Below the pieces are notes generated by a model. It had not been told where the DNA came from and did no database searches. It saw only the letters and a list, made by a program, of their open reading frames with translations. This document shows, piece by piece, positions 4,989 to 25,160 of a stretch of 29,594 bases of DNA; position 1 is the stretch's first letter; every line of letters begins with the position of its first letter. This stretch comes from Dehalococcoidia bacterium (GTDB lineage Bacteria > Chloroflexota > Dehalococcoidia > Lucifugimonadales > UBA3495): positions 1 to 29,594 of the forward strand of contig JASLXV010000060.1 in assembly GCA_030740155.1 (NCBI GenBank), read 5' to 3'. The position numbers and the translations under genes were made by a program.

Positions 4989-6929
4989 CTACTCGATGTC
5001 TTTAAGGAACTCTTCCATGCCCAGCCGCTTGAGGGTCTCGGGAGTGGGCAGCCCCGTAGCCACGTTCCAGCCCATCTGGCCATAGTACTCGTCCACCATG
5101 GCGGGAAGATAGGGCTTGATGCTCAAACCCTTGGACGGGCCGGCGGGTGGCGCCTCCAGGTGTTTCTCGGAGATGTCGAACTCGTCCTGCTTCTGAAATC
5201 CCCTCCTGGCGTACACCAACCGCATCAGGTTGGTGACCCGCTCGCCGACCGTGAGGGCCTCCGGCAGGTCGAAATCCTCCCACCCGACGCCCTGGGCCAG
5301 GGAATCGGCGGTGAGGCGCAGGGAATCCGGGACGCCCCGCGCGGCGAACATGCAGACGCCCAGGCAGTCCCAGAACAGCTTGGCGAACTGGGTCTTGCGG
5401 ACCGGGTCCACCTTGGCGATGGCTTCCTCGGCGTTGTGGGCCACCCCCGGAGTGCTCTCTGGGTAGCCCAGCTCCGGGTTGCCCACCATGTCGATGCCCG
5501 ATCCCTGGATCGAGGGCCCGGTGCCCGCTATCAGCTCGCCGAAAAAGGTGCCCCAGAATTGGCGGTGGTCGTGGGCCACCACCCCGGCGCCCTTCACGTC
5601 CAGCACCTTGCTGCGCATCTTCTCCACCAGTCCCTTTTCGCTGCCCAAGGCCTCGGGAAGGGCCTTGGAGCCCAGGGCCAGCTTGGCGCCGATCCCCTCC
5701 CTCCGGATGGCCCGGTTGATCAGTTCCATGGCCGATTCCCAGTTGCCCCACGTCAGGTCCAAGCCGTCGGTGTCCTCCTGGGTGAGGATGCCTTCGTTGT
5801 AGGCCTCGTACACCGCGCCCATGATGGTGCCGAATTGGCCCGACTCCAGCCCCATGCCGTCGTAGAAGTCGGTCATGATCACGATGCCGTTGGGGTCGTC
5901 CACGCCGATCATGCCGGCGGCGCCCTCCATGTTCTCGGCGCCTCCGCAGGGGCTCCCCACGAACCCGGCGTAGGGGCCGTCAGTTATCTCCACGTCGTAG
6001 GCGCAGGATATCTTGCAGTTGTAGGACGGCTGGGGGGTAATCTTCCAGCGGGCGCAGGCCTCAACGTAGTTAAGGGAATACTGGGCGCCCCATTCCGGGT
6101 CGGTCATGTTCTTGCCCGCGACCCTCAGGGTCTTGCCCAGCCGGTTGTAGTATTCACGGCTCTCGCCCCCGTCCTTCAGGCCCATCGCCGAAGGCGGGAC
6201 CACGAAGCTCTTGGCGGGGTCGGGCATCAGGTTTTCCTCCCACTCGGCGGAGGTCTTCACCAGCCCCTCGGGGTCGAAAACGGGAACGGCGCCGGTGCCC
6301 CGCACCGCGATGGCCTTGAGGTTCTTGCTGCCCATCACGGCCCCCGGACTGCCTTTACCGGAGCCGTGGTTGCGGTCCGCCTTCACCATGGCCCCGGGAA
6401 GCACCGCCTCGCCGGCGGGGCCGATGCAGGCCACGCTGATGAACTCCTCGTCCCCCAGCTCCACCTTGAGGCGGCGCTCGGTTTCCCTGGTGTTCACGCC
6501 CCACAGGTGGCTGGCGTCGCGCAGCTCCACGTGGTCGTCGTCGATCCAAAGGTATTGAGGCTTCTCGGCCCGGCCCGTGATGTAGATGCCTTCGTGCCCG
6601 GCGTGCTTCAGGTAGGCCCCCCAGAAGCCGTGGCCGTGGCCCACCCCGGCGGAGTAGGGTATGAGGAGGTTGTAACAGATGGTGGCCCAGTCGGAGGAGT
6701 TGTTGGCGGGGGTCCCCGTCAGTGGCCCCGCCATGAAGATGAGGGGTGCGTCGGCCTCGGTAGCCTCGGCCTTTGGGGGTGCGTCGCGCAGCAGCAAGTA
6801 TATGCCCAGGCCGGTGCCGCCCACGTACTTGCGCAGGATATCCTCACTGGGCAGGGGCTCCCTGGTGATCGTGCCCTGATCCAGGTCTACACGCAGGATA
6901 TGAGGCCGGTATCCTCCACGAATCGCCAT
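4989..6929 (-). CDS. Aldehyde:ferredoxin oxidoreductase family protein (W/Mo-bis-pterin), paralogue 1
   Basis: ILRVDL, YVGG, GPLTG, LKHAG, DASHLWG, ACIGPAGE, GAVMGSKNLKAIAVRG, DCLGVC, YYGQMGW; AAGGAGG RBS before ATG 6929. Confidence 0.92.
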   Translation of the reverse strand: MAIRGGYRPHILRVDLDQGTITREPLPSEDILRKYVGGTGLGIYLLLRDAPPKAEATEADAPLIFMAGPLTGTPANNSSDWATICYNLLIPYSAGVGHGHGFWGAYLKHAGHEGIYITGRAEKPQYLWIDDDHVELRDASHLWGVNTRETERRLKVELGDEEFISVACIGPAGEAVLPGAMVKADRNHGSGKGSPGAVMGSKNLKAIAVRGTGAVPVFDPEGLVKTSAEWEENLMPDPAKSFVVPPSAMGLKDGGESREYYNRLGKTLRVAGKNMTDPEWGAQYSLNYVEACARWKITPQPSYNCKISCAYDVEITDGPYAGFVGSPCGGAENMEGAAGMIGVDDPNGIVIMTDFYDGMGLESGQFGTIMGAVYEAYNEGILTQEDTDGLDLTWGNWESAMELINRAIRREGIGAKLALGSKALPEALGSEKGLVEKMRSKVLDVKGAGVVAHDHRQFWGTFFGELIAGTGPSIQGSGIDMVGNPELGYPESTPGVAHNAEEAIAKVDPVRKTQFAKLFWDCLGVCMFAARGVPDSLRLTADSLAQGVGWEDFDLPEALTVGERVTNLMRLVYARRGFQKQDEFDISEKHLEAPPAGPSKGLSIKPYLPAMVDEYYGQMGWNVATGLPTPETLKRLGMEEFLKDIE

Positions 6930-6997
6930 GGTTTTCCTCCTTGCTTCGGGGGCGGCGACGGCGCCGTCCCGCACCAACTGGCGTCGGTGATGCGCCG

Positions 6998-8896
6998 CTA
7001 CGCTTCCGCCCTTCCCACCTGGACGCCTTCCATGCCTAGCCGCTGCAGCGCCTCCTGGCTGGGCGCACCGCTATCCTGGTCCCAATCGAGGCACTCGTAG
7101 TACTCCTGGAACCACCTTTCCAGGTGCGGCCCGGCGGGAATAACCCTGCCCTTCATGGGCCCGGCATCCAGGCCCGCCAGCATGCGCGGACTGATGTCGA
7201 AGTCGTGCTCCCGCTTGTAGCCCAGGTGAAGGGCCATCAGGCGCTGCAACGTGACCAGGCGCTCGCCGGTAGTCAATGCCTCCTCGCGGGAATAGCCCTC
7301 CCATCCGGTGGCGGCGGAAAGCGCCTTGATGGCGGGATCCCAGGTGCCGGGCGTGCGCTTCAGGGCGAAATGGCAGACACCGATGGTATCCTCCCAGAGC
7401 TTCTTGAACTGCCCTTTGTAGACCGGCTCAACCATTCCGTCAGGACTCATGGGGTCGACAAACTCGTAGCCCAGATCGGGAGCACCGGCCCGGGGCGGAA
7501 GAACCAGCCCCAGCTCCGTCTGCCACACCGGCCCGGCGCCGGCGATGAGCATCTGGAATATGAGGCCCGGGTGAATCCGCATGTCGTGGTCGTTGAAGCC
7601 CGTTCCCTTCATGTGGATTGCCAGGTCTTCGATGCCCAGTTCCCGGCCACATTCCCGGGGCGGCTTGGCCAGGGAAGCGCCGATGCCTTCCCGGCGCACC
7701 GTCTTCTCCAACAGCTCGATGACGGCCTCATAGTTGCCCCAGGTGAGGTCCAGGCCGTCCACCTCGTCCTGGTTGAGGCGCTCGGTGTTGTAGGCCTCCA
7801 TCACCATGGCGATATTGCGGGGCACCTCTCCCCCGTCCAGTCCCAGCCCGTCCACCATGCCGGTAATGGCCAGGGCAACGCCGGGGTCGTCGATGCCCAG
7901 GTTGGGGCCGGTCTGCTGAATGATCTCACCGCCGTAGCCTGAGACCACGGTTCCGGCCACGGGCCCGGTGGTGATCACCGTCTCGTGGTGGCAGGTCATG
8001 TCGCAGTTGAATCCCCCGACGGGGCGCACCTTCCATTTGGGAGTGTCCTCTTCCCAGCGGTCCTTCCAGTGATATTGGAAGTCCGGATCGCTATAGTTCT
8101 TCCCCTGGACGTTGCCCCGGTCGGGGACGTTGGCGAAGGTGCCCGGGACCACCGAGTGGGAGTGCTGTGAGGGCGGCGGGCGCTCCGATGCGTAGAGGGC
8201 CCGGTTCCAGGTCTCGTAGGCCTCCATGAGGCCCGCGGGGTCGGTGATGGGTGCCCGGCCGGTGCCCCGCACGGCGATGGCTTTGAGCAACTTGGAGCCC
8301 CAGGCGATGCCGGCCTCGCCCCGGGCCGCGGTGTAGGTCCCGTCGGAGCGCACCGCAGCCCCGGTGATCAGGTTCTCCCCACCGGGACCGATGCAGGCGA
8401 CGCTGATCTGGAGAGGATCGCCCAACTCCAGCTTGATGCGTCGCGGCGTCTCGAAGGTGTCCATTCCCCAATAGGGAGCGGCGTCGCGCAACTCTACATT
8501 TTGGTCCTCGATCCAGAGGTACACCGGCTTGGGCGAAACGCCCCGGACGACGATGCCATCCCAACCGGCGTGCTTGAGCCGGGCGCCAAAATACCCGTGG
8601 GCGTGGCTCAGCCCCACGTGGTAGTCGGGGCACTCCCTCAGGTTGACCAGGACCCAGTGGGAGGCGTTCGGCACCATGACACCGGTGAGGGGGCCGGTGA
8701 ACAGGTAGAACGGGCAGTCGGGATCGACCGGGCGCATGGTGGGGGTTATCTCCTGGGCCATGAGGAACAGGCCGACGCCCGTGGCGCCGCCATAGGCCCG
8801 CAGCACCTCCTCCGGGGGCATGGGCACGGACCGGGTGGTCCCGCTGGTCAGGTCTACCTCCAGGATTTGGCCTTGGAACCCGCCTTTTACAGCCAT
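6998..8896 (-). CDS. Aldehyde:ferredoxin oxidoreductase family protein, paralogue 2
   Basis: ILEVDLT, GPLTG, LKHAGWDG, ACIGPGGEN, WGSKLLKAIAVRG, DGLGLD, DTIGVC, YYECLDWD; GGGAGGT RBS before ATG 8896. Confidence 0.92.
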   Translation of the reverse strand: MAVKGGFQGQILEVDLTSGTTRSVPMPPEEVLRAYGGATGVGLFLMAQEITPTMRPVDPDCPFYLFTGPLTGVMVPNASHWVLVNLRECPDYHVGLSHAHGYFGARLKHAGWDGIVVRGVSPKPVYLWIEDQNVELRDAAPYWGMDTFETPRRIKLELGDPLQISVACIGPGGENLITGAAVRSDGTYTAARGEAGIAWGSKLLKAIAVRGTGRAPITDPAGLMEAYETWNRALYASERPPPSQHSHSVVPGTFANVPDRGNVQGKNYSDPDFQYHWKDRWEEDTPKWKVRPVGGFNCDMTCHHETVITTGPVAGTVVSGYGGEIIQQTGPNLGIDDPGVALAITGMVDGLGLDGGEVPRNIAMVMEAYNTERLNQDEVDGLDLTWGNYEAVIELLEKTVRREGIGASLAKPPRECGRELGIEDLAIHMKGTGFNDHDMRIHPGLIFQMLIAGAGPVWQTELGLVLPPRAGAPDLGYEFVDPMSPDGMVEPVYKGQFKKLWEDTIGVCHFALKRTPGTWDPAIKALSAATGWEGYSREEALTTGERLVTLQRLMALHLGYKREHDFDISPRMLAGLDAGPMKGRVIPAGPHLERWFQEYYECLDWDQDSGAPSQEALQRLGMEGVQVGRAEA

Positions 8897-9208
8897 GACG
8901 GACCTCCCTGATTCAGCAAAGTTTCTACCATTTATAGATTCCTCTGAGAGATTCCTCGCCGGAGGAATGCTGTCGGCTACCGGTTTCCTCGTCGATCCCC
9001 GCGGCTGCGCCGGCGTAGGCCATAGTCCATAGCGAGGGATGACGGGATACCCCATACGCCCAAGGCGGTCGCCATGACGCCGGTGGCGTTGATGCCCAGG
9101 GGTTTCGAGGAGCCTGGTTCCCCTATTTTGGTCCAATAATGTAGGAGGGGGCGGTGTCGATCACCCGTGGACCGAGGCTGAAGAAGAAGGCTCCTCCGGA
9201 TACCGCCA

Positions 9209-9328: not shown

Positions 9329-10083
9329 CTACGATCCTTGCACCGGCGGCGATGGTTTCACCACGGCCCCGTCGACCAGTTGCACGGTCCGGTTGCACAT
9401 TCCGGCCAGGGTCAGGTCATGGGTTGCCACCACCACGGTGGTCCCCTGCTGCACGACGATATCGCGCAAAATGGTGGCGATGGCCCCGGCCGTGGTGGTG
9501 TCCAGCTCGCCGGTGGGCTCGTCGGCGAACACCACGTCGGGCGCGGCGACCAGGGCCCGGGCGATGGACGCCCTTTGCTGCTCTCCGCCCGAAAGTTCGT
9601 AGGGGCGGTGCCGGGCCCGGGGGCCCAGGCCCACCAGGTCGAGGGATTTCAGGGCCAGCCGGCGGCGCTCCCGCCACGAATAGCCGCTGATGTGCAGGGG
9701 CAGCTCAACGTTTTCCAGCGCCGAGAGGAGGGGCATCAAGCCGAACGACTGGAAGACAAAACCGATCTTCCGGCGCCGTAGCTCCACCAGGCGGGACTCC
9801 GACAGAGTAGCCAGATCGCTGCCTTGGAAGAAGACCTTGCCTCCGGTGGGCCGGTCCAGGCCGGACATGAGGTTCAATAGGGTGGTTTTTCCCGAGCCGG
9901 AGCGGCCGACAACGGCAAGAAACTCCCCTGGAAAGATATCCAGCGTGACCCGGTCGACGGCGGTAACCGACGTCTCACCGGACCCGAAAACCCGGGCCAG
10001 GTCTCGCGTCGAAATCATGGGCGCGGGGGCCGCGCCGTGGGGTCCGGATTCAATCGGCGGGGCACTCCCCTCCGGCGCCTCTT

Positions 10084-10087
<4 letters not shown>
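9329..10087 (-). CDS. ABC transporter ATP-binding protein (LolD/MacB-type)
   Basis: Walker A GRSGSGKTT, Q-loop GFVFQ, signature LSGGEQQR, Walker B FADEPTG, H-switch ATHD; ATGA overlap with the upstream gene. Confidence 0.93.
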
Positions 10088-11088
<1,001 letters not shown>

Positions 11089-11131
11089 CTCATCTATCCA
11101 TCTCCCCGCGTTTCTCGGAAATTGCGCGCCC

Positions 11132-14100
11132 TCACCCTTCGCCGATGCGCAGGACCTGCTGGACTTCCAATCTGAAGGTGATCCAGGCCAGCCAGGCCAC
11201 CGTACCCGCGGTGACTCCGGCCAGGACCAGATACGACACCAGCAGGGTGGTCCAGTTGGTTTGGAGGACCATGGGAGGAGTCACCCTGGCCCCTTCCTCG
11301 GCTCTCTCCATCAAAGGCAATAGGCTGGCGCCAACCCATTGGCCGGCCAGGCTACCCAGCCCGATGCCACAGGCCACCACTAGAATAACACTGAACCACA
11401 CCACCCCCGTGAGTTGCGCCTTGGACGAGCCGAGGGTCCGCATGATAGCAAACTCGGTCTGGCGGTCGCGGGTATCGAGGTAGGAGAAGAGCATTATCCC
11501 CGAGGTGGTGGCCAGGGCAACTACCAGGAACACCAGCACCAGCAGGCCGCCCCAGCCGGCGTTGACCAGTGGCCGATCGAAGGTTTGCGATACCATTTCC
11601 CAGGCCACCACGGTTTCCCGCAGCCGCAGACCGCGCTCTTCCAGAGCGGCCACTATGGGGCCGGTGTCCCCGTCCGGGTCCCGCAAGCTGACCCACAGCT
11701 CGTCGGACCCACCCAAGGGCCTGGGGCTGTGGAGGTTCGCCTGTGGAGTGAAGATATTCAAGTCTACGACGGCGAACGGGTCCTCCCTTGGGTCCAGAGT
11801 GGGGAAATAATCGGCCACCGCCACTGCCTTGAATGGCAAGGAGTAGGTGGATAAGCTCAGGTTCAGCGTGTCACCCACCCGGGCTTCAGCCGCCTCGAGA
11901 AACGACCTGCTTACCACCGCCGGAATCGGCTCTTCCGGACTGCCCGCCCGGAGACCCCGGAGCCCGACGCCTCCGGGGGCCCAGCTAAACACCGCCGACC
12001 CTCCTCTCCCCTCCGGGCCTGCCAACTCGCTGGCGTCCAGGGCGTAGAGGCCGGGCCGGGAGTAGTCCTCGGTCACGTGCCATTGCCCGCGCCATTGAAC
12101 GAGGTCCCCGAAATCGGCAATTATCTCCTCTGCTTCGCCCGTCAGGGCCGACAATCGCCACAGAAACAGGGCTCCAGGGTCCTGGGGCCCACCCCTGCTG
12201 CCGAGGTAGATGGAGAACAGGGTGAAGGGCGGCGTCACTTTGGGAGGCTGCTCCCGGCCCCGGCGACCGAAAAGGGGTACCGGCACGAGTTCGGCTTCCA
12301 GGCGTCGCCAGCCGCGGAAATTCAAGCCTCCCAGGAGGGCGTCGAAGTAGTATCCGTTGGCGTCCCGGAGCCTGGCCAGGACCGCCAGTCCGGGGTCGGG
12401 CCGGCTCGGCTGGACCCAGAGCGCCAGGCCGCCGGCCTCATGGGGGAGATCGATGCCATCTTTCGGAGATGGCTCGGCCGCCGGAGGTGGGGTGATGGGA
12501 GCGGTGAGGTCGGCCAAGGACTTCCCTCCGGCGAAGTCGGGGCGATACCAGGCCACCCGGCTGAAATTCTCCGCGTCCACTTCGAGGACCGCAACGCTGG
12601 TGGTGATGAAACCGCTGGTCAACAAAGAGCCTCGGTCGCGCCGCCCCTCGGCGGCCCCGGCCACCGCTTCCATCTCGCCCGCCAGGTCCGCGAAACCCGG
12701 CGCGTCCACCGCGCCGGCCGTGCCCGTATGCCGGATGCGCAGGTCGGCCCCCGCGGCGTACAGGACCCGCTCCCGCTGGCTGCGCTCCAGGGTGGAGCTG
12801 AAGGCGCTTCCGATGACTCCCAGGCCGGTCGCCAAGGTAAGCAGGATGATCAGGGCCCCGGGCATGATGGGGTCTCTGGATACGTGTCTCAGCCCGTGCA
12901 CCAGCCAGGAAGGGCCCACCGGCTCGGTGACTCGGGCTACCAGGGACAGGACGATGGGAAAGACGCGCAACACCAGGAGGCCGATCGCCAGAAGCTCCAG
13001 TAACGGGCGGAACAGGCCGATGTAGTCGATCTGGAGTTCCCGGCTATCCAAGGTCTGCACCAGGAAGGTCTCCCGGGTCTGGGTCTGCCACCAGAGCGCG
13101 CCAATCAACACCAGCAGCAGAACGTCCAGGTAGTAGCGATGAATAAAGGGCGCCCGAGGAGGCCTGGCTTCCGTTTGGCGAAACTCGACGATGCCCTGCC
13201 GGGCCGCGACCAGGGTCAACACGGTGAGCGCTCCGACCGCCAGAAGGCCTCCCGCCAGCCCCAAAAAGAAAGCGAGGGGGGAAAGGGAGACCGGGACCGA
13301 CGCCAGCTCCCCGCCGCCGCCGAGCCCAAAAAAGAACCGCCCCAAGAGCCGGACCACGGCCAACGCCATCAAAGGCCCGAACACAACCGCGGGGACGGCC
13401 AGGAGCGAGCCTTCCGCCAGCGCGAGCAGCCCCACCTGTGAGGTGGTGGCCCCCCGGCTCTTGAGCATCGCTATCTCGGTGCCCCGGGATTTGACCACCA
13501 GTCCCGAAACCAGGCCCAGGTAATAGACAAGTATGCCGGTGACCAGAAAGACGATCATGAAGAGGGGAATGCGGGCCAGCCTCAATTGCTCTTTATAGTC
13601 GTCCAGCACCCGGTCCAGCTTGATGGCGATGCTGGCGTTATTCAGATTGGCGGGCACGTCGCGCCTGATGGAGCGGGCCAGGCCCTGGAGGTCGTTCACG
13701 TCCCTGGCCCGGACCCCTTGGCGGTCCAGGTAGAAGAACCAGGTGGTGTCAATGAACAGCGATGGGTACCGGCCGAGCATCCGGTTCAGAATGGCTTCTT
13801 CCGTGGTGAACAGAGGGATATAGGTCCAGCGATCACTCTTGAAGCTGAACTCCCGGCTGGCGCCGAACCAGAACTCGTCCTCGGGGTCAACCCGCTCGAA
13901 AACGCCCACAATCTTGGCCTGCATCGAGGGTGGGCCGGTGGAGGACGACACGGTGAAGGACGAGGCGGGGAAGATCTCCATCTCGTCGCCGACACCGAGC
14001 TGGAGCAGCTCCGCCCCCAACGTATCTATGGCTACCTCCATCGGTCTTTCGAAGTCAGCCTGGGCCACGGACAAGCCGGAATAGGGCCAGCTCCCCTGGA

Positions 14101-14551
14101 CCATTCGGATGCGGTCCGGCAGCAGCCCAGTGAAGTATTGGACATCACCCCGCGGCCGCGTGTCGTCGGCCAGCTCCAATTGCGGGTGACCCTTGAAGAA
14201 GAAGGTGGGGCTCTCGAGAAGGTGAGCCCGGTCTCGCAAATAGGACTGGAAACGCGACTCCACCCGTTCCTCGGTGAAGCCGAGGCCGGCCCGGTAGGCG
14301 GCGACCCGTCCCGCGGCCGTGGGCGGAGCATCCTGGCCGATGAACGTCCTGACCAGAATGTTGGTTTCCTCGGCGCTGGCCTGATCCAGCGAATGGCGCA
14401 GGGCAGCCTCCGACAACAGGTCGGAGAAGATGACGCCGCTTGACATCAACGCCACCGCTATCAGGATTCCCAGGAACAGGACCAGCTCCAGCCGCCAGCC
14501 GGAGATGGTCCGTTTCAGGGCGATGATGTAGGCCAGTGGCAAGAGGGACAT
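11132..14551 (-). CDS. Large FtsX-like ABC permease
   Basis: Two FtsX-type repeats (RGTEIAMLKSRGAT; RQTEFAIMRTLG), GADL motif, large extracytoplasmic domains, multiple TM segments. Confidence 0.9.
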   Translation of the reverse strand: MSLLPLAYIIALKRTISGWRLELVLFLGILIAVALMSSGVIFSDLLSEAALRHSLDQASAEETNILVRTFIGQDAPPTAAGRVAAYRAGLGFTEERVESRFQSYLRDRAHLLESPTFFFKGHPQLELADDTRPRGDVQYFTGLLPDRIRMVQGSWPYSGLSVAQADFERPMEVAIDTLGAELLQLGVGDEMEIFPASSFTVSSSTGPPSMQAKIVGVFERVDPEDEFWFGASREFSFKSDRWTYIPLFTTEEAILNRMLGRYPSLFIDTTWFFYLDRQGVRARDVNDLQGLARSIRRDVPANLNNASIAIKLDRVLDDYKEQLRLARIPLFMIVFLVTGILVYYLGLVSGLVVKSRGTEIAMLKSRGATTSQVGLLALAEGSLLAVPAVVFGPLMALAVVRLLGRFFFGLGGGGELASVPVSLSPLAFFLGLAGGLLAVGALTVLTLVAARQGIVEFRQTEARPPRAPFIHRYYLDVLLLVLIGALWWQTQTRETFLVQTLDSRELQIDYIGLFRPLLELLAIGLLVLRVFPIVLSLVARVTEPVGPSWLVHGLRHVSRDPIMPGALIILLTLATGLGVIGSAFSSTLERSQRERVLYAAGADLRIRHTGTAGAVDAPGFADLAGEMEAVAGAAEGRRDRGSLLTSGFITTSVAVLEVDAENFSRVAWYRPDFAGGKSLADLTAPITPPPAAEPSPKDGIDLPHEAGGLALWVQPSRPDPGLAVLARLRDANGYYFDALLGGLNFRGWRRLEAELVPVPLFGRRGREQPPKVTPPFTLFSIYLGSRGGPQDPGALFLWRLSALTGEAEEIIADFGDLVQWRGQWHVTEDYSRPGLYALDASELAGPEGRGGSAVFSWAPGGVGLRGLRAGSPEEPIPAVVSRSFLEAAEARVGDTLNLSLSTYSLPFKAVAVADYFPTLDPREDPFAVVDLNIFTPQANLHSPRPLGGSDELWVSLRDPDGDTGPIVAALEERGLRLRETVVAWEMVSQTFDRPLVNAGWGGLLVLVFLVVALATTSGIMLFSYLDTRDRQTEFAIMRTLGSSKAQLTGVVWFSVILVVACGIGLGSLAGQWVGASLLPLMERAEEGARVTPPMVLQTNWTTLLVSYLVLAGVTAGTVAWLAWITFRLEVQQVLRIGEG

Positions 14552-14653
14552 CAATCCCCGCTCCGATAATCTTGCTTACTATCCGGCTTCTCTGACAACT
14601 TGCTGCTTCTTCCCGTCTCGGCGGTGTTGGTGGTGAGTGGTAGAGTGATTTCT

Positions 14654-17600
14654 TCACTCCCCGGTCCGCAGAATATCCGGCACCCGGAGCCGGCGGGCCA
14701 CCAGGGTGGCGAAGAGCAGGGACAGGAGGCTCGCCGCCGCCAGTCCGGCGAAGACCAGCGCCGCCAGCCACCCCTGGACGCTCACGTCCATCGGGGGAAG
14801 CACGGGCCGCCCGGAGGCGGTGATGTCCAGGAATCCCAGGACCCACCGGCCCAGCCCGAAACCGATGGCGCCGCCGGCCCCCAGGCCCAGCACCGCCACC
14901 AGCAGCCGTTCCAGGCCCAAGGATAGGAATATCTGTGCCCTGGAGAACCCCAGCGCCCGGGCCACCGTCAGGTCCACCCGGCTGGTGTGTATGGCCACCG
15001 CCGCGTGCATGGCCAGAGTCAGGACCACGGCCACGGTAACCGCCGACAGTCCCAGAATGGTGAGGCCGTTCCAACCGCCGCCGGCCAGAGGGTTGCGCCG
15101 TGTCATCTCGACCTGAGCATCCCGGTCCTGGACCGAGACGAACCCCGGCAGAACCTCCGCCAGGTCGTGGACCACCTGTTCGCGGCCGGCCTGCTCCTGG
15201 GGCGAGACCCAGATTTCTTGGGGCGCTTTGAAACTTCCCTGGGGTGACCGATGGAGATACTCCCGGTAGTCCGCCAAGGCCACGAGAAGGAAGGGCCGGG
15301 ACGACGGGTCCAAGGTGGGGAAGTAGCCGGTGGTATCCATCACCACCAGGGGCACCACTTGCCTTCCCGCCCTGACGCGCAGCCGTTGGTCCACGTGAAA
15401 CATGGAGCCCCCGACGGTGGGGAGGGGAAAGGGCCCGTGGGGCAGGAATACGCCTCGAGGGGTGGTGCCGAGGGGCTCTTGCCAGGTGAATCGAAGGCCT
15501 GCCCGGCCGTTTCCGTCCGCTGGCGAAGTACGCTCGATGGTGTCCGCCGTCTCCCCTTCGATTGCCAGGGGCGTCCATCCCCCGATTTCCTCATACCCCT
15601 CGATGATGACTCCGGGGGGCGGAATGGACGGGCCTTGGACCGTGATGTCGTCCAGGTCGAGGATGCCCGGCGGCGCCGCGGTAAGCGCCTTCTTACTCAT
15701 GAAGATGGAGACCACCCTGGCCGGATGTTTCAACGACCGGCTCTCATCGGTCAGCGGCGCTTCGAAATAGCTCCATTCTGGTCCCTCGTCTCTAGAAGAG
15801 GGCGGTTGCGAGCCCGCCGGCGCGCCTTCCGGAGGGTCCCGCAGGTCGCCCAGCAGCACGTTGCGGTATCGCCCATCGCCGTCTTGGACCCGCGCCCACA
15901 GGTTCAGGCTCAGCCGGGTTTGTCCCAACTCCGGGATTTCCAGTTTCGCCCAGATGCCGATGCGCTCACCGCCCGTTGGAATTGCTATGCCAGTGCCGCC
16001 GCCCTGACCCGGAGTGGGTGACACCCAGCGGGTCCGGGTGATGGGACTGAGCAACTCCCGGAGGTCTTTGCCGGCGAAATCCTCCTTGAACCAGGCGGCG
16101 GCAGGCAGGTCGACCGGGTCAACGCCCAGTAGGGTGGCGGTATCGCCCGGGAACCCATCCAGCAGGTTCACGGTGTCACGGGCGATGGGGCTGACCGCCT
16201 GGACCCCCGGCGTGACGGCGACTGTTTCCAGAGATGAGTCGGAAAAACTCCGGCCCCGGACGGCTAGGTCACCCCCCAGGCGGTACAAAGCCTGCTCCAC
16301 GTGGCTCCGGGCCAGAGTGGCCTGAAAGCTGGCGCCGAAAACGCCCAGGGCCGCGGCCATCATCAGGATGACCACCAGGGCGCCGTGGGGCAGTGGGTCT
16401 CGCGACAGGCGGACCAGGGAGAAGGCCAGCCACGGTGGGCCGAAGCGGCTCCCGGCCCAGGCGAAGAACCGGACCAGCCACGGCAGGACTCTCAAGGCCA
16501 GCAACGCGGCCGCCAGGAGCCCGAGGACCGGCCCGAAAAGCAGGCTGGGGTCGGCTTGCAGGGTCCTGGTGGACACGTCACGCTCGATGAATCCGCCCCG
16601 GCTGCTGATCTGCCACCACAGCAGCCCCAGCGCCGCCAGCACCAACAGGTCCACGTAGTACCGGTGCAAAAGCGGCACCGTGGGCGGCCGGGCCCTGTCC
16701 CTCAAAGATTCCATGGTGCCAAGGCGGGCGCGGGTCAACGCCGAAGCCGCCAACACCCCGAGGGCCAGGAGGCCTCCGATGGTGCCCACGACAAACATGT
16801 CCGCCGAGAGCCCGACCGAAAGGCCGCCGGGGCCCACGCCCAATGGGTCAATGGTCCGCAGCAGCAGGTACCGCACGATGGCCAGGGCCAGGAAAGGCCC
16901 GGCCACCACGGCAAGAACGGCGATGGCCCCCTCGCCGAGGACCAGCAGGGTGCTCACCTGGAGGAGGCCGGCGCCCCGGCTTCTCAGAAGTCCGGCCTCT
17001 TCGGTCCGGGAGCGCGCCAGCAGCCCCATGACCAGGGCCATTGCATAGAGGATGACCACGACTATGAGGGCGATGAAGAGGTAAAGCGGAACCCGGGCCA
17101 GGTCCAATTCCTTCTGGTAATCCGCGAGGCTCTTATCGAGGCCGGTGATCACCAGAGAGCGGGGAAACTTCTTGTTGATGTCCGTCTCCAGCCCGGTGAC
17201 GTTATCCTCGGTCTGGTTGGCCGTGCTGGCGGTCAACACGCCGGAGTCGACGAATAGGAACCATCTGAAGTCGCCCACCATGGCCGGGTACTTCGTGCCC
17301 AAGCCCTCGAAGAAGTCGTCCTCTCGAAGGTAGAAGGGCAGCAGTAGGTCATCTTCGATCCCCTGCAGCCGGAAGTAGGCCAGGGAGTTCATCCAGTACT
17401 CTTCCCGGGGGTCCTTGGGCTCGGCCAGGCCCACCACGTTGAGCACGATTTGCTCCGAGGAGTCGGTCCTGAAGGGAAAGATGGACATCCGCGCGCCCAC
17501 CTGGAGACCGAGGCTGGAGGCGGCTCGATCCCCTATCACCGCTTCCAGCTCCAGCCCCCGGTCGTGGAGCACGGGAGCGGTTGCGGGCCACCTGCCTTCA

Positions 17601-18031
17601 ACCAGCCGGGAATGCTCCCGGAAGCCGGTGAGGAAGAAGGGCCGCCCGAAGGGCCCGCCGACCGGCGGGGGCTGTCCCTCTGCCGAGAACACCAGGTGCA
17701 GGTTTGGCTGGGTCCGGCCGAAGCGCTGGATATCTCGCACCAGGTAATCGAGGCGGGCCCTGGTGATCTCCTCGACGTCGGCCCGGAGCTTCCGGTAGTC
17801 GGCCGGCCCCAAGGGCCGGTTCTGCAGGATCACGTGGGCGTTCAGGATCGTGGGGGCGGTCGTGGCCAGCTTGTGGCGAAGGCCTCCTTCCGCCAGAGCG
17901 CGGGAGTAGACGGCGCCGACCGACATCAGGGTTACGGCGGCCAGTATCCCAAAAGAGCTGATGGCCAGAAGCATCCAGGAGGCGCGGAGGCGGCGCGCCA
18001 AGAGCCAGTAGAGCACACCGGTCCAGCCCAT
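14654..18031 (-). CDS. Large FtsX-like ABC permease (paralogue)
   Basis: RTEEAGLLRSRGA and RVDLTVARALG repeats, GGDL; collinear with the neighbouring permease. Start 18031 chosen, 18079 possible. Confidence 0.9.
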   Translation of the reverse strand: MGWTGVLYWLLARRLRASWMLLAISSFGILAAVTLMSVGAVYSRALAEGGLRHKLATTAPTILNAHVILQNRPLGPADYRKLRADVEEITRARLDYLVRDIQRFGRTQPNLHLVFSAEGQPPPVGGPFGRPFFLTGFREHSRLVEGRWPATAPVLHDRGLELEAVIGDRAASSLGLQVGARMSIFPFRTDSSEQIVLNVVGLAEPKDPREEYWMNSLAYFRLQGIEDDLLLPFYLREDDFFEGLGTKYPAMVGDFRWFLFVDSGVLTASTANQTEDNVTGLETDINKKFPRSLVITGLDKSLADYQKELDLARVPLYLFIALIVVVILYAMALVMGLLARSRTEEAGLLRSRGAGLLQVSTLLVLGEGAIAVLAVVAGPFLALAIVRYLLLRTIDPLGVGPGGLSVGLSADMFVVGTIGGLLALGVLAASALTRARLGTMESLRDRARPPTVPLLHRYYVDLLVLAALGLLWWQISSRGGFIERDVSTRTLQADPSLLFGPVLGLLAAALLALRVLPWLVRFFAWAGSRFGPPWLAFSLVRLSRDPLPHGALVVILMMAAALGVFGASFQATLARSHVEQALYRLGGDLAVRGRSFSDSSLETVAVTPGVQAVSPIARDTVNLLDGFPGDTATLLGVDPVDLPAAAWFKEDFAGKDLRELLSPITRTRWVSPTPGQGGGTGIAIPTGGERIGIWAKLEIPELGQTRLSLNLWARVQDGDGRYRNVLLGDLRDPPEGAPAGSQPPSSRDEGPEWSYFEAPLTDESRSLKHPARVVSIFMSKKALTAAPPGILDLDDITVQGPSIPPPGVIIEGYEEIGGWTPLAIEGETADTIERTSPADGNGRAGLRFTWQEPLGTTPRGVFLPHGPFPLPTVGGSMFHVDQRLRVRAGRQVVPLVVMDTTGYFPTLDPSSRPFLLVALADYREYLHRSPQGSFKAPQEIWVSPQEQAGREQVVHDLAEVLPGFVSVQDRDAQVEMTRRNPLAGGGWNGLTILGLSAVTVAVVLTLAMHAAVAIHTSRVDLTVARALGFSRAQIFLSLGLERLLVAVLGLGAGGAIGFGLGRWVLGFLDITASGRPVLPPMDVSVQGWLAALVFAGLAAASLLSLLFATLVARRLRVPDILRTGE

Positions 18032-18100
18032 AATCTTGCTATCCGCGACTCTGAGTTGGCCATCGGGCCATTCAACCATCCACGGGTTCCAATGGCAGGC

Positions 18101-18129: not shown

Positions 18130-18540
18130 CGCCGGGTTCGAGCCAGCCAGCCGCTTATCCCGATTTCCGACGAGCCGGACGGGCTCGCTTCGATGCTGCC
18201 AGGCACGAATCCCGCGGTGGCCCTTCAGGAATTGGCGGCAAACTGGGACAGTCGCGGTTTCTTGGGGTCGCTTCGAAGTTGCTGGGCGGGAGAGATGGCC
18301 CGGAGCGGCCGCGGGCGACGGTGGGGCTTTCCGGTGAATCCTGAGGGAGGACGTGGGTTCAGAGGCCCTTGATTGGTTTGGGTCGGCAAGACTGGCTCGC
18401 CGGTTAATCGTCGAGGACGCTAGGTTGCGCGACCGGACGGGACTGCATGGGGAAAGCTCAGGCCATTCCCGAGCCTTCAATACTCATTCAGCTTGGTTGT
18501 TGCGGGACGGCAACTGTCGGCAATTAGGTTGACTGAGCCG

Positions 18541-19017
18541 CTAGTCCCGTATGGGCGTCTCATAGAGGCTGAGCCGGACGCTCAGCGGCCCGAGGGGGCT
18601 CGTGAAAATCACCCGTATCTGAGATGAACCGAAAGTGGTGAACCGGCTCCCCAAGGGTTCGATGATAACCGGTGGGCTGATGTTGCAGGGATAGCCGGCC
18701 TGGGCCAGCCGCGTGGCGGCGTTGCCGGTGATCATATTGGCTATCTCTCCGATCGCCGAAAGGCCCAGCTCGTTGCTGGGGTTGTCGACCGGCTCGCCGA
18801 GCATCTGGCTCATGACCGCGTACGCCGTCTCCTGACTGAACCCGTAGAGCACGTTTCCTTCCAAACGGCCGCTGACACCGATCACCGCCGTGACGTCATC
18901 GGTGGTGAACTGGTTGGAAACGAGGTCCATCCCGGACAACTCGAGGCTGCATCCCAGTTCCTTCTCCCAGACGAGCTTGGTGGGCGCCAAGAACGAGTTT
19001 ACATACTCTTCTTTCAT
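18541..19017 (-). CDS. cheX: CheX-family CheY-P phosphatase
   Basis: 158 aa; DVTAVIGVSG.LEG, SAIGEIANMITG (E-x2-N catalytic motif), CNISPP; GAGGAG RBS. Confidence 0.9.
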   Translation of the reverse strand: MKEEYVNSFLAPTKLVWEKELGCSLELSGMDLVSNQFTTDDVTAVIGVSGRLEGNVLYGFSQETAYAVMSQMLGEPVDNPSNELGLSAIGEIANMITGNAATRLAQAGYPCNISPPVIIEPLGSRFTTFGSSQIRVIFTSPLGPLSVRLSLYETPIRD

Positions 19018-19506
19018 TCGGACTCCTCTCTAATGCGGTCAGTACCCAACATGTCCGGGACCAGGGCGAAACGAGGACCTTGCTGAAACCGTTTTCGCTA
19101 AACGCGAACCTCACCTTGGCTTCGCTCTTGGCCTCCGGAAGATCTCATTGTGCCCAGAATCGAGGCTAGGCGGCAAGAAATGGCAACGCCATTCATCGGC
19201 ATCGTTGCGTCTGCTGTCGCAAAATCCAGGAGCTTGATCGGGCTTTCGCGCCTCTCTGCCTTTGGCTGGTACTCCTTGCTTCCGCCGAGGTTGGCTCCCG
19301 GCCGGGTGCCGGAGGTTTGCCAGGCATGTAGACGGGCCCGTCAAGGGGATTTGTTAAGACCCTGCAATTGGAGCGTAACGGTAAGGAGTGCACAACAATA
19401 GAGGCACTTCCCCAACCGCGATTAGGAGTTTCTCCCATATTGGATGTCGCCTGGATTGGAATTTGCGATGGCGAGAATTGGAATCATCGCTCTCGAGGCG
19501 GCAGGC

Positions 19507-19543
19507 AAAGAAAGCCCCCCGGAGGGGACCAGGGGGATTTCTC
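19507..19543 (-). terminator. Probable intrinsic terminator after the tubulin-like gene
   Basis: Minus strand hairpin AGAAATCCCCCTGG...CCGGGGGGCTTTCT followed by T residues. Confidence 0.55.
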
Positions 19544-19578
19544 TTGGGGGAGTCGGCGCCGGCTTTGGGTCTTGCCGG

Positions 19579-20700
19579 CTAGAAGGTAGAGGGCTCCGGG
19601 ACGCCGTCGTTAAAGGGTCGCGGCGCGTCCGCGGGTTCCCAGTTCAATTCCTCCACCCGTCGCTTCATCTGCTCCAGTCTTGAGAAGTCGCTGATTCCCG
19701 ATACCAGGGTTACGGCTGAAAGATACTTGCTTCCGCTTTCGGGATAATCTCCGTATCTAACCTTGCCGACCGTGGTTATTTGCTCGAGGCGGGCCCGTCC
19801 TCTGGAGATTGGTTGAGTGTAAAGGTGTTCCGGCTTCCCATGTATCACCAGCGCCGCGGACCGGCCGCCGCTGACGTCGCACGGGAAGGTCAGCGCGCTT
19901 TTCGCGATGCTCCTCTCGATTATGCTCTCCAGTTCGTGGGTGCCGGGGTCGATCCCCTTGCGCCAGAAGCGGGCCTTGGACTTCACCACTTCGCTGCAAT
20001 ATCCGATCGTAGACACGTCGCCGATCAGGCCCAGCGTTGCCTTGATCTCCGACGAGCTGAAGACCTCCTGGGGTGAGGGCCTAACTTCCCCGGCATTCAG
20101 CAGCGTGGTTAGAGTCAGCGCCAATTTCTGATTCACCCGGGTGTACATGCGTTCCACGGATTCCCGGCTGACCAGGTTGTCCTCATACTGCTGATTGTCC
20201 ACCAGCAGGATGTTGTTGAAGTAGTGGCTCCAAAGCTCGAAGCTCTTGAGCGCATTCGAAAGACTTAAGGCCTCTTTGTCCGACGGCATGTCGCTTACCG
20301 AGGGGACGACCCCCAGCGCATACACTGGGGTGCCCCGGTAAACCCGGTTGAGTTCATTGGCCAGAACGTAGGAACCACCGGCCCCGGTCCCGCCGGCCAG
20401 CCCGGCGGCGATCCAGAAAGCCTCCGGATCAAACCGGTGAACGAGGATGTCAATCCTATCCATCACCTGGGACAGGGCTTTCTCGGCGATGCTTGCACCT
20501 AGCTCGATGTTTGCGCCGACGCCTCTGCCCTTGAGGGCATACCTGCCGATGAGGACCTTGTCGTGGATATTGTTAAGCCCCACCAGGTCCGCTTGTTCCG
20601 TGTTAATGGCTATCGCCTCATAGAGTTTCCGGTTCGTCCCCCGCAGGGTATTGGCTATCTTTCCACCGGCTTGTCCGTATCCAATCCATAGTACTCGCAT
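19579..20700 (-). CDS. Tubulin/FtsZ superfamily GTPase, CetZ-like
   Basis: IGYGQAGGKI (T1), AINT, KGRGVGAN (T3), AGLAGGTGAGG (T4), DN, SSSEIKATL (T7), STIGY, LTFPC, VRYGDYP; GGAGG RBS before ATG 20700; 373 aa. Confidence 0.9.
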   Translation of the reverse strand: MRVLWIGYGQAGGKIANTLRGTNRKLYEAIAINTEQADLVGLNNIHDKVLIGRYALKGRGVGANIELGASIAEKALSQVMDRIDILVHRFDPEAFWIAAGLAGGTGAGGSYVLANELNRVYRGTPVYALGVVPSVSDMPSDKEALSLSNALKSFELWSHYFNNILLVDNQQYEDNLVSRESVERMYTRVNQKLALTLTTLLNAGEVRPSPQEVFSSSEIKATLGLIGDVSTIGYCSEVVKSKARFWRKGIDPGTHELESIIERSIAKSALTFPCDVSGGRSAALVIHGKPEHLYTQPISRGRARLEQITTVGKVRYGDYPESGSKYLSAVTLVSGISDFSRLEQMKRRVEELNWEPADAPRPFNDGVPEPSTF

Positions 20701-20973
20701 CTCTTGAAGCCTCCCCTTATTGATCGGCCCATCGAGGCTGGGCCGGGCCGGAGCTACTGATCCGATAACCTCATACTGGGCCACCCGTGGCGGCAACGTA
20801 TCTGAGGCCAGGGGTCTCCTCCGCCTCTCCCGGTACTTCCCGCAAAGGACTCGGGGTTACCGGGTGGTGTCAATTATTTTCGGGCCGGCCAGTGGGTCTC
20901 GTGGTGCGTGGGTCACACCCTGGGCGGCTTGGCGCTCCGGCTTGCCGAGTTGGTCCCCGGTTTCAGCGCCCCG

Positions 20974-21165
20974 CTAAACCGGGTCGCTCTGAAGTTCCCG
21001 ATCCAGGTCGTCGACGGAATTCCGGAACTGCCGGGTCTCCTGGCAGTTCCGGCAGACTCCCCGGCTCACCGGGCCATTGGCCGGTTCAATGATCCAATGG
21101 TGGCGGCAAAGGGTTAAGGCTGCTTCCTTCTCTGCCACCGCGATGGGCTGCTGCTGGGCCAACAT
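20974..21165 (-). CDS. Small putative Zn-ribbon protein (CxHHW...CxxC)
   Basis: 63 aa, CRHHWIIEPANGPVSRGVCRNC...FRNS; strong AGGAGG RBS. Confidence 0.75.
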   Translation of the reverse strand: MLAQQQPIAVAEKEAALTLCRHHWIIEPANGPVSRGVCRNCQETRQFRNSVDDLDRELQSDPV

Positions 21166-21365
21166 TTCGAGTCCTCCTGGGCTCCTTGAAGTTGTGACTT
21201 GAGATTTTCGGACTGGGAATGCGGGTTCGATTGGTGGTCCGGAGGGCGGACAAGGTGGTGAAAGCTGACCGGGGGTCTTGGCGCCCCTGGGCCGGCAAAA
21301 TGAGGTGGGTAACGGGGATCTCCTCCGCCCACAATCTCTCGCACTATTCCCTTCCCTTTAGGCAG

Positions 21366-21395
21366 AACTTAGCGGCCTGGCTGCTGTTATGTCAA
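21366..21395 (-). promoter_or_regulatory. Putative sigma70 promoter upstream of the Zn-ribbon gene
   Basis: TTGACA-N18-TAAGTT with AT-rich sequence upstream. Confidence 0.45.
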
Positions 21396-21594
21396 CGATA
21401 TTAAAGACCAATTTTGGGCAAGTTCTAATCAAATGACCAAAATTGATCATTGTTCAGCCACGGAGCCCTGGTTGGTGGCCGGAGATATGAAGATGCAGGG
21501 GCCGGAGATAGCGATCGGTGCTTTGCTTTTGGTGGGGAGCAGCGGCCGGTTGCCGGGGGTCCGACCTTTAGGAATGCAGATTAGGACTCAGTTC

Positions 21595-21621
21595 AGTACT
21601 CAGTCGACCTGATTGAGTACT
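21595..21621. other. Hairpin at the bioB stop codon
   Basis: AGTACTCAGTC-N5-GATTGAGTACT, an 11-bp stem with one mismatch and no U-tract. Confidence 0.45.
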
Positions 21622-22633
21622 AGAGACTCGGGGTTTCTCCGCCCGCCGGACCGGCCTCACCCGCGGGTCCTTCGACCTCAAAGCCCATGTCCCGGATCAT
21701 CTGCCAGGCTTCTTTCGGGGATTGTCCCGGCGTGGTGAGGTACCCATCAACGAAGATGGAATCGGCGGGATAGAGCGCCAGCGGCTGCAAGCTTCGCAAA
21801 TGGTACTCCCGCCCTCCGGCCAGCCGGATTTCCTGGGCGGGACACAGGAACCGCAACAGATACAAGATGCGAAGGCACTGATGGGGTGTCAGATAGCTGA
21901 AGTGCTCGAAGGGCGTTCCCGGAATCGGGTGCAGGAAGTTGACCGGCAGCGACTCCGGCTCCAACGCCCGCAAGGCCAACGCGACTTCGATGATGTCGTC
22001 CGCGGTTTCACCCTGGCCGAATATGATGCCGGTGCAAAGATGAAGACCGGCGCGCCGGGCCGCATTGAGGGTGTCCAAACGGTCCTCGTAGGTGTGGGTC
22101 GTACACACCTGCGGATAGTACCGCCGGCTGGTGTTCAGATTGTGGTTGAGTTGCTCCACTCCCGCACTCTTCAATTGGCGGGCCTGCGACTCGGTGAGCA
22201 GGCCCACCGAGCAGCAGATTTCGATGTCGACCTGGCTCTTGATGGCTTGGCCCACCCGGACCAGATAGTCCATTTCCCGGTCCGTGGGTCCCTTGCCGCT
22301 GGCGACGATACAGTAGCGCCGGGACCGGGATTCCTTGGCTCGCCTGGCCCCCTCCAGCAGGGCCTCCTCGCTGAGCCAGGGGTATTTTTCGATTCCCGCC
22401 GTCGACAGCCGAGACTGGGAGCAATAGTGGCAGTCCTCGGAGCAGAGTCCGCTCTTGGCATTCACCAGCATGTGCAGGCGGACGCCGGCGCCCCGGAAGT
22501 GCCGCCGGACCCGGAACGCGGCGTCCAAAAGCTGGAGGATGTCGGCGTTGGGGCTTTCCAGGACGGCGTAGCACTGGTCTCGCGACAGCTCTCCCCCCGA
22601 CAAAGCTGTTTCAGCCAATACCTGGTAATTCAT
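21620..22633 (-). CDS. bioB: Biotin synthase (radical SAM)
   Basis: NAKSGLCSEDCHYCSQS (CxxxCxxC), YCIVASG, CCSVG, NHNLNTS, LCTG, PVNFL, IRLAGGRE, YLTTPG. Confidence 0.95.
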   Translation of the reverse strand: MNYQVLAETALSGGELSRDQCYAVLESPNADILQLLDAAFRVRRHFRGAGVRLHMLVNAKSGLCSEDCHYCSQSRLSTAGIEKYPWLSEEALLEGARRAKESRSRRYCIVASGKGPTDREMDYLVRVGQAIKSQVDIEICCSVGLLTESQARQLKSAGVEQLNHNLNTSRRYYPQVCTTHTYEDRLDTLNAARRAGLHLCTGIIFGQGETADDIIEVALALRALEPESLPVNFLHPIPGTPFEHFSYLTPHQCLRILYLLRFLCPAQEIRLAGGREYHLRSLQPLALYPADSIFVDGYLTTPGQSPKEAWQMIRDMGFEVEGPAGEAGPAGGETPSL

Positions 22634-24989: not shown

Positions 24990-25160
24990 CTAGCGCACTG
25001 TCTCGTAAATAACCTTATCTAGGCGAATTCGTGCGACATGCTCAATGCCTATTCGTCCCCGACAGCATCGGGGCCGGTACCCAGAGAAGCGCTTTCTGGA
25101 TCCCGGCCTTCGCCGGGATGACGGGCCGCCTATCACGCCATTTACGAGACACCAGACTAG
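24990..25160. mobile_element. MITE-like element carrying a REP hairpin
   Basis: CTAG-N5-TGTCTCGTAAAT (24999-25010) ... ATTTACGAGACA (25140-25151)-N5-CTAG; internal CTGGATCCCGGCCTTCGCCGGGATGAC (25096-25122). Confidence 0.65.

Follow-up and report, generated by a model that had tools for sequence, protein, structure and literature searches.

A CetZ-family tubulin homologue with a variant T7 loop in Dehalococcoidia

The closest described relatives of the protein reported here are CetZ1 and CetZ2 of Haloferax volcanii (PDB entries 4B46 and 4B45). The tip of the CetZ1 M-loop is required in vivo for rod shape and envelope association; foci of a tip mutant are detached from the envelope in vivo, liposome binding in vitro is not abolished, and the authors favour subunit contacts as the role of the loop, while the E218A substitution yields hyperstable polymers (10.1101/2024.04.08.588506). 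CetZ is still called archaea-specific in papers of 2023–2026, among them PMC9856176, whose sections consulted here do not mention Chloroflexota. Bacterial CetZ-like genes are nevertheless on record: Santana-Molina et al. 2023 (PMC9871819) state in one sentence that Chloroflexota-Dehalococcoidia form "sparse paraphyletic groups" matching the CetZ C-terminal HMM, a mention that limits how surprising the present gene is. In their supplementary tree Dehalococcoides and Dehalogenimonas fall into one block, and a lone Dehalococcoidia tip outside it, near Halobacteria-like CetZs, may be the clade described below. The motifs of that clade were not found in the portions of the supplements covered here, and the portions of the paper covered give no analysis of residues, neighbourhood, distribution or function for these proteins. 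We found no other study of a bacterial CetZ, subscription journals and bioRxiv supplements lying outside the search, and no functional data on any bacterial CetZ in the literature searched. The word CetZ does not occur in the papers on Chloroflexota archaella that the search yielded.

The window, that is, the whole stretch of DNA analysed, comprises 29,594 nucleotides of a Dehalococcoidia bacterium assembly (GCA_030740155.1, contig JASLXV010000060.1). An intact reading frame of 373 codons, whose product we call P0001, lies on the minus strand at the position given in an earlier, purely sequence-based preliminary description (Table 1), and its ATG start follows AAGGGGAGG, which resembles a ribosome-binding site. 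P0001 scores 72.8 bits against Pfam Tubulin (PF00091, cut-off 33) and 101.1 bits against CetZ_C (PF21011, cut-off 21.6), so that both domains that define a CetZ are present above their curated cut-offs and chance is far exceeded. The best PDB sequence match is 4b46 (E 1.4e-56), followed by 4b45 (1.3e-37), with the top FtsZ at 3.3e-8. An AlphaFold2 (AF2) model built from a 65-sequence alignment has a mean pLDDT of 90.8, and with it Foldseek ranks 4b46 and 4b45 first and second (TM 0.80-0.81; E 3e-32 and 4e-29) and FtsZ below both (TM about 0.71, E 1e-23), a closest-structure result that holds for an alignment in which archaeal CetZs were included. P0001 is a bona fide member of the CetZ family by sequence and fold. 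With the two Haloferax proteins it shares the domain pair, the fold (32-35% structural identity) and the motifs GQAGGK, KGxGVG, SSEI with the catalytic Glu, LTxPC and RxGDYP. It differs from them in its bacterial host, in the lost T7 Asp, in an Ala in T4 and in a basic/aromatic M-loop about 15 residues shorter than that of CetZ1 and 7 longer than that of CetZ2; its pI is neutral (7.0), against 4.4-4.6 in two halobacterial CetZs. The epimerase, F420 and pilus genes that neighbour archaeal cetZ genes in the sections of PMC9856176 consulted are absent at this locus. P0001 was not assigned to the CetZ1 subfamily, which is defined by an M-loop of 14-26 aa, a place in the halobacterial clade and an acidic tail: the tree does not place it among the halobacterial proteins, its M-loop has about 14 residues in the model, and the tail is missing in many members of its clade.

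FtsZ shares the fold of P0001, but the genome's own FtsZ is only 17% identical to it. With 55.7 bits P0001 falls short of the 295-bit cut-off of the NCBIfam ftsZ model (TIGR00065), and it has no NxDxxD T7 loop, no FtsZ_C domain and no C-terminal FtsA-binding peptide. Aligned with the genome's FtsZ, which carries GGGGSNA, NVDFAD and LDVPSFLR, it lacks the FtsZ hallmarks, as the preliminary description had it. That description had also called the protein CetZ-type rather than FtsZ or TubZ and proposed a structural comparison with H. volcanii CetZ1; Pfam, PDB and plasmid matches, the Foldseek ranking and the tree all agree with it. The strings it listed (GYGQAGGKI, VLIG..KGRGVGANIELG, SSSEIKATL, STIGY, LTFPC, VRYGDYP) all occur in the translation, with one correction: the spacer in LNRVY(RGT)PVYALG has three residues, not two. 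To these points our analysis adds a second CetZ-like paralogue, a conserved small gene upstream and the prior mention in the literature.

Table 1. Position of the features discussed, within the window unless another locus is named
Feature	Position	Strand	Basis or remark
CetZ-family tubulin homologue, clade A (P0001), 373 aa	19579..20700	-	Pfam, PDB, AF2, Foldseek
Tubulin domain	P0001 residues 3-172		Pfam
CetZ_C domain	P0001 residues 180-349		Pfam
T4 signature loop LAGGTGAGG, residues 101-109	20374..20400	-	clade A alignment
T7 loop PQEVFSSSE, residues 210-218	20047..20073	-	clade A alignment
M-loop region K..ARFWRKGIDP, basic/aromatic, residues 240-253	19942..19983	-	alignment with CetZ1
63-aa ORF, CxHxW...CxxC (putative zinc ribbon)	20974..21165	-	273 nt upstream of cetZ, same strand
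Intrinsic-terminator-like hairpin	19515..19536	-	8-pair stem, T-rich tail, 43 nt past cetZ stop
cheX-like phosphatase gene, downstream of cetZ	18541..19017	-	Pfam CheX 61.9 bits
Second CetZ-like gene, clade B, 418 aa	L002:1495-2751 = G000:C50:42847-44103		Tubulin + CetZ_C

Phylogenetic analysis by FastTree (n=123) and by IQ-TREE (n=52, hand-chosen from those) gave agreeing trees. The IQ-TREE one is rooted on two bacterial FtsZ only and includes neither Haloferax CetZ1/2 nor any tubulin, TubZ or archaeal FtsZ row. P0001 belongs to a clade, termed A, of six rows with support 100/98 (100/100 with three sister sequences added; the only locus found for these three, L088, shows nothing but short-chain dehydrogenase, cupin and CoA-ligase genes). 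A node supported at 100/98 takes in clade A and leaves out FtsZ together with a Thermococcus CetZ (P0180), and since the Thermococcales proteins mark the boundary of the CetZ family (PMC9856176 section 3.3), clade A falls inside the family. The phylogeny proposed in the preliminary description is thereby answered for bacterial FtsZ, from which clade A stands apart; TubZ was set aside by similarity and context, not by the tree. Two further groups carry the same pair of domains in the same class: clade B (100/100), separate from A, which holds the second paralogue of this genome, and clade C (100/99), which groups with Nitrososphaerales proteins (98/88). Unlike A, both have a DxxD T7 loop, and they are 22-33% identical to it. 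Forced monophyly of A, B and C was rejected (p-AU 4e-14, for groups defined after the first tree and with four unnamed rows among them). The trees do not fix the branching order among A, B, C and Halobacteria, and so point to no particular donor. Clade C loci in the class sample are L011-L026, and one genome, G009, has three tandem copies on one contig.

CetZ_C proteins are found in 85 of 401 genomes of the class and in 74 of 121 of the family; in the sample of the phylum the 24 carriers among 301 genomes all belong to this same class. Clade A accounts for 28 of the 121 family genomes (this one and 27 further loci, 57-88% identical) and the weaker-scoring clade B for 60. Three further clade A genomes, at 52-56% identity, belong to another family outside the order. 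An order-level count of 1/201, this genome alone, proved to be a sampling effect once the family was searched. This patchiness (clade A in 28/121, CetZ_C in 85/401) indicates that cetZ is unnecessary for wall-less life. The dN/dS ratio against the nearest relative, L005, is about 0.10 (0.055/0.544, first 350 codons), and synonymous sites are saturated against L006. Among the clade A loci examined, three (L010, L058, L068) are frame-split, by assembly error or decay. Purifying selection and the presence of clade A in at least two families of the class point to an old transfer; of the horizontally shared protein initially proposed, the archaeal affinity stands, and the transfer is old rather than recent.

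The residues that distinguish clade A were counted in the 105 sequences of 320 aa or more and compared with 30 named or handle-bearing non-A rows and 80 unnamed rows. In T4, position 107 is Ala in 102/105 and Ser or Thr in 29 of the 30 named or handle-bearing rows. The T7 consensus is PQEVF[S/N]SSE, with an invariant Gln-Glu-Val just N-terminal to the site: Glu218 is kept in 104/105 and Glu212 in 105/105, and Asp occupies position 215 in only two. The equivalent of 215 is Asp in all 30 named or handle-bearing rows and in 53 of the 80 unnamed ones. P0001 itself reads QEVFSSSE, with Glu218 kept and Ser215 in place of Asp, just as had been noticed from the sequence. By T7 type, clades B and C are DxxD, Halobacteria DxxE (as are all seven named Halobacteria/Thermococci rows) and clade A SxxE, so that clade A shares the Glu and seldom the Asp. 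Both alpha-tubulin equivalents, D251 and E254, have been implicated in hydrolysis (PMC10319017, PMC10056924), and loss of the Asp probably slows GTP hydrolysis in clade A; that Glu212 stands in for it is a guess. The KARFWRK patch (residues 242-248), likewise picked out beforehand as basic and aromatic in a putative M-loop, aligns with the LLSRL tip of the Haloferax CetZ1 M-loop. Conservation here is high at W246 (103/105), G249 (103/105) and P252 (105/105) and lower at F245 (88/105), and the loop is the least confident core stretch of the AF2 model (block mean pLDDT 71). Since liposomes are still bound in vitro when the CetZ1 tip is mutated, lateral contact and membrane binding are equally likely roles of the loop in clade A.

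The 3.6 Mb genome, of 93.7% completeness and 7.65% contamination, contains a bacterial 16S gene and three tubulin-family genes: ftsZ, the clade A cetZ and the second CetZ_C gene, on another contig, whose product is 22% identical to P0001. This paralogue is very conserved (at least 120 homologues at 71-100% identity). The reading frame 3′ of it encodes 307 aa and has a hydrophobic stretch at the N terminus; the 254 of its residues that were scanned match no Pfam family. The canonical ftsZ, whose separate presence the preliminary description wished confirmed, directly follows ftsA, and with rsmH directly before them they form a reduced rsmH-ftsA-ftsZ cluster. In a tblastn search of this genome with 18 E. 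coli proteins, rsmH, ftsA, ftsZ and yhdE were found; ftsI, murC, murD, murE, murF, murG, mraY, ftsW, mreC and mreD had no match, and mreB and ddlB gave weak partial matches only, with no full-length mreB. Single queries can miss genes, as mraZ and rng also went undetected, so these absences are unproven in a 93.7% complete assembly. They fit what is reported of cultured SAR202, which form rods, cocci and discs with an S-layer-like coat and have no peptidoglycan genes, and of other Dehalococcoidia, likewise without peptidoglycan synthesis (PMC10444878).

Directly upstream of cetZ lies a small gene with a 63-aa product. Of the 27 family loci two are truncated; 20 of the remaining 25 have a homologue at the same place, and one non-match has only 362 nt of upstream sequence. 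The three loci of the other family have no homologue there. The four ligand-like residues are invariant in 19 aligned members, and it is from this CxHxW...CxxC pattern that the protein is read as a putative zinc ribbon; it matches no Pfam or PHROG family, and its Atlas neighbours are Chloroflexota clusters. Complex prediction with P0001 gave a score of 0.00 with controls not folded, and the result is evidence neither way. Downstream, the hairpin is supported by its position alone, as terminator-like sites are no commoner than in shuffles (4 found, 3.7 expected). The cheX-like gene beyond it was considered as a dedicated partner and rejected: in the clade A loci examined, only three genomes besides this one have cheX next to cetZ, it is frame-split in two of the three, and here the hairpin lies in between. 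We found no sigma-70-like promoter for cetZ, no common upstream motif by eye among the cetZ loci, and neither a tRNA nor an Rfam match anywhere in the window. RNA-library contigs from four runs in three studies cover cetZ and the upstream ORF by at least 99%, two of the runs having a single contig across the pair; cheX and most flanking genes have no cover. The runs were selected using 18400-21700, contigs cannot rank expression, and DNA carry-over is possible. The cover is consistent with transcription of cetZ and proves neither that nor a shared transcript. In one study only, contigs of two runs stop at 19547-19548, close to the hairpin, and we gave this no weight. At 25053-25150, a short non-coding stretch matches many unrelated RNA-library contigs with loose ends; it is probably a small repeat or RNA fragment. 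The minus strand further carries two aldehyde ferredoxin oxidoreductase genes in tandem (4989-9136) and an ABC system (9329-18079) in which two FtsX-domain permeases of 1140 aa and two LolD-like ATPases stand in tandem, in an order kept in L005.

What might such a protein do? Our proposal, which we judge could equally well hold or fail, is that P0001 forms a slow-turnover GTPase filament that serves shape, not division, in a wall-less cell. The gene would have been acquired long ago from archaea by Dehalococcoidia and inherited since. Reasoning from Haloferax CetZ1 and tubulin, we expect P0001 to bind GTP and to polymerise head to tail, with Glu218 of the next subunit completing the active site; without the T7 Asp, hydrolysis would probably be slower and the filaments longer-lived, and the aromatic-basic M-loop could serve lateral bundling, contact with the inner membrane, or both. 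The most likely task of such cortical filaments would be to determine whether the cell is a rod or a disc, or to switch it between the two, and to organise the envelope, in the way CetZ1 does in Haloferax.

An alternative is that P0001 mainly organises an archaeal-type motility apparatus, that is, the archaellum and where it sits at the pole, and that in this genome it is left over from that role or has taken on another. CetZ1 affects assembly of the archaellum and the chemosensory apparatus in Haloferax (PMC13644373), and Chloroflexota archaella are of archaeal origin (PMC12488501). Archaellin matches occur in 17 of the 28 family genomes with clade A and in 9 of the 93 without it (Fisher p 1e-7); counted by genus the figures are 7/10 and 4/17 (p 0.04). 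Kin are not independent, and these p values overstate. An ArlI-type ATPase is found in 9/28 against 5/93 (6 of the 14 checked by alignment). Clade B has no such link (16/60 versus 10/61, p 0.19). At class level, however, co-acquisition of cetZ with the archaellum did not hold up, the difference being non-significant (archaellin in 25/85 CetZ_C carriers against 65/316, p 0.11), and the co-occurrence could come from shared retention in one sub-lineage. No archaellum gene adjoins cetZ in the loci read. This genome keeps cetZ and scattered archaellin-like genes, one each on C92, C68 and C93 (two pass the cut-off, the third matches weakly), yet has no match for a T2SSE/ArlI ATPase, ArlJ or CheW. 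In G608 and G645 an operon arlB-G-F-H-I-J lies upstream of glmS, and here the same slot (G000:C93:40350-41150, mid-contig) holds a remnant only of the gene after arlJ, which suggests loss of the operon. Clade A is also present in the single-contig genomes G592, G658 and G598, which have no archaellin or ArlI, and since cetZ is intact in the first two, we favour a role wider than motility. A mainly motility-related role we think unlikely. The genome has two cheX genes (the one in Table 1 and L053:1375-1854) without a CheW match, and in L005 and L010 cheX is frame-split at differing offsets. Three adjacent ORFs at G000:C68:39418-41330 resemble minC, minD and minE in their motifs; MinD regulates CetZ1 localisation in Haloferax (PMC11621097).

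P0001 might instead be an accessory division protein that aids FtsZ in wall-less constriction, as the second FtsZ does in many archaea. Its fold is that of FtsZ, and there is no detectable septal peptidoglycan machinery, so constriction may need other help. Against this, cetZ lies outside the division cluster and its product has no FtsA-binding tail; the C-terminal tail, unstructured in the AF2 model, is missing altogether in 23 of 105 clade A members, which are 352 aa long and end right after the last helix; and clade A is missing from most relatives. We consider a division role quite improbable. A DNA-segregation filament like TubZ, with the 63-aa protein as adaptor, is very improbable. The conserved small gene directly upstream would suit it, and P0001 shares the tubulin GTPase domain with TubZ/RepX and PhuZ, but the similarity to RepX (E 3e-5) and to the PhuZ PHROG (E 0.06) is far weaker than to CetZ. 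As for the marks of a TubZRC system, P0001 has no TubZ_C Pfam match, all 33 of its plasmid matches are haloarchaeal, it has no phage match, and 18900-21700 contains no iteron-like repeat array. The gene stands in a chromosomal metabolic context, and four other copies of the small-protein family lie beside unrelated genes in the genome (G000:C69:13526, C61:6734, C20:2159 and C50:23037). Finally, an archaeal contaminant or chimeric contig, for which one could cite the contamination estimate of the assembly and a cetZ GC3 of 0.73 against 0.78-0.89 in eight neighbours, has next to no chance and was ruled out by synteny and distribution: about 12 kb of gene order is common with the Dehalococcoidia MAG L005 at 78-89% protein identity, contig composition is no outlier (rank 46/67 from the genome mean; GC 0.637 versus 0.626), the six loci found in the genome collection are all titled Dehalococcoidia or Chloroflexota MAGs, named homologues are Chloroflexota, Dehalococcoidia or SAR202 (one cluster member is titled "SAR202 cluster bacterium"), and clade A also occurs in single-contig relatives. 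Together with the 16S gene and the rsmH-ftsA-ftsZ cluster, this gene order confirms the bacterial host.

Clade A is a real, unstudied variant of the CetZ family. Its natural loss of the T7 Asp offers a direct test of that residue in GTP hydrolysis by the tubulin family, and as a non-halophilic CetZ with a pI of 7, P0001 should be workable in ordinary buffers, unlike the Haloferax proteins. A shape-determining CetZ filament would bear on how Dehalococcoidia and SAR202, wall-less, MreB-less and abundant in the ocean, make discs and rods. A bolder and rather doubtful extension is that, after loss of the wall and MreB, Dehalococcoidia took in CetZ from archaea on two or more occasions and the copies then specialised. 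Clade A would have become a slow-hydrolysing, membrane-hugging filament, regulated by a dedicated zinc-ribbon protein, which gives the cell an archaeon-like control over disc and rod shape and originally placed a borrowed archaellum. If this were true, an archaeal cell-biology kit would be operating in a bacterium.
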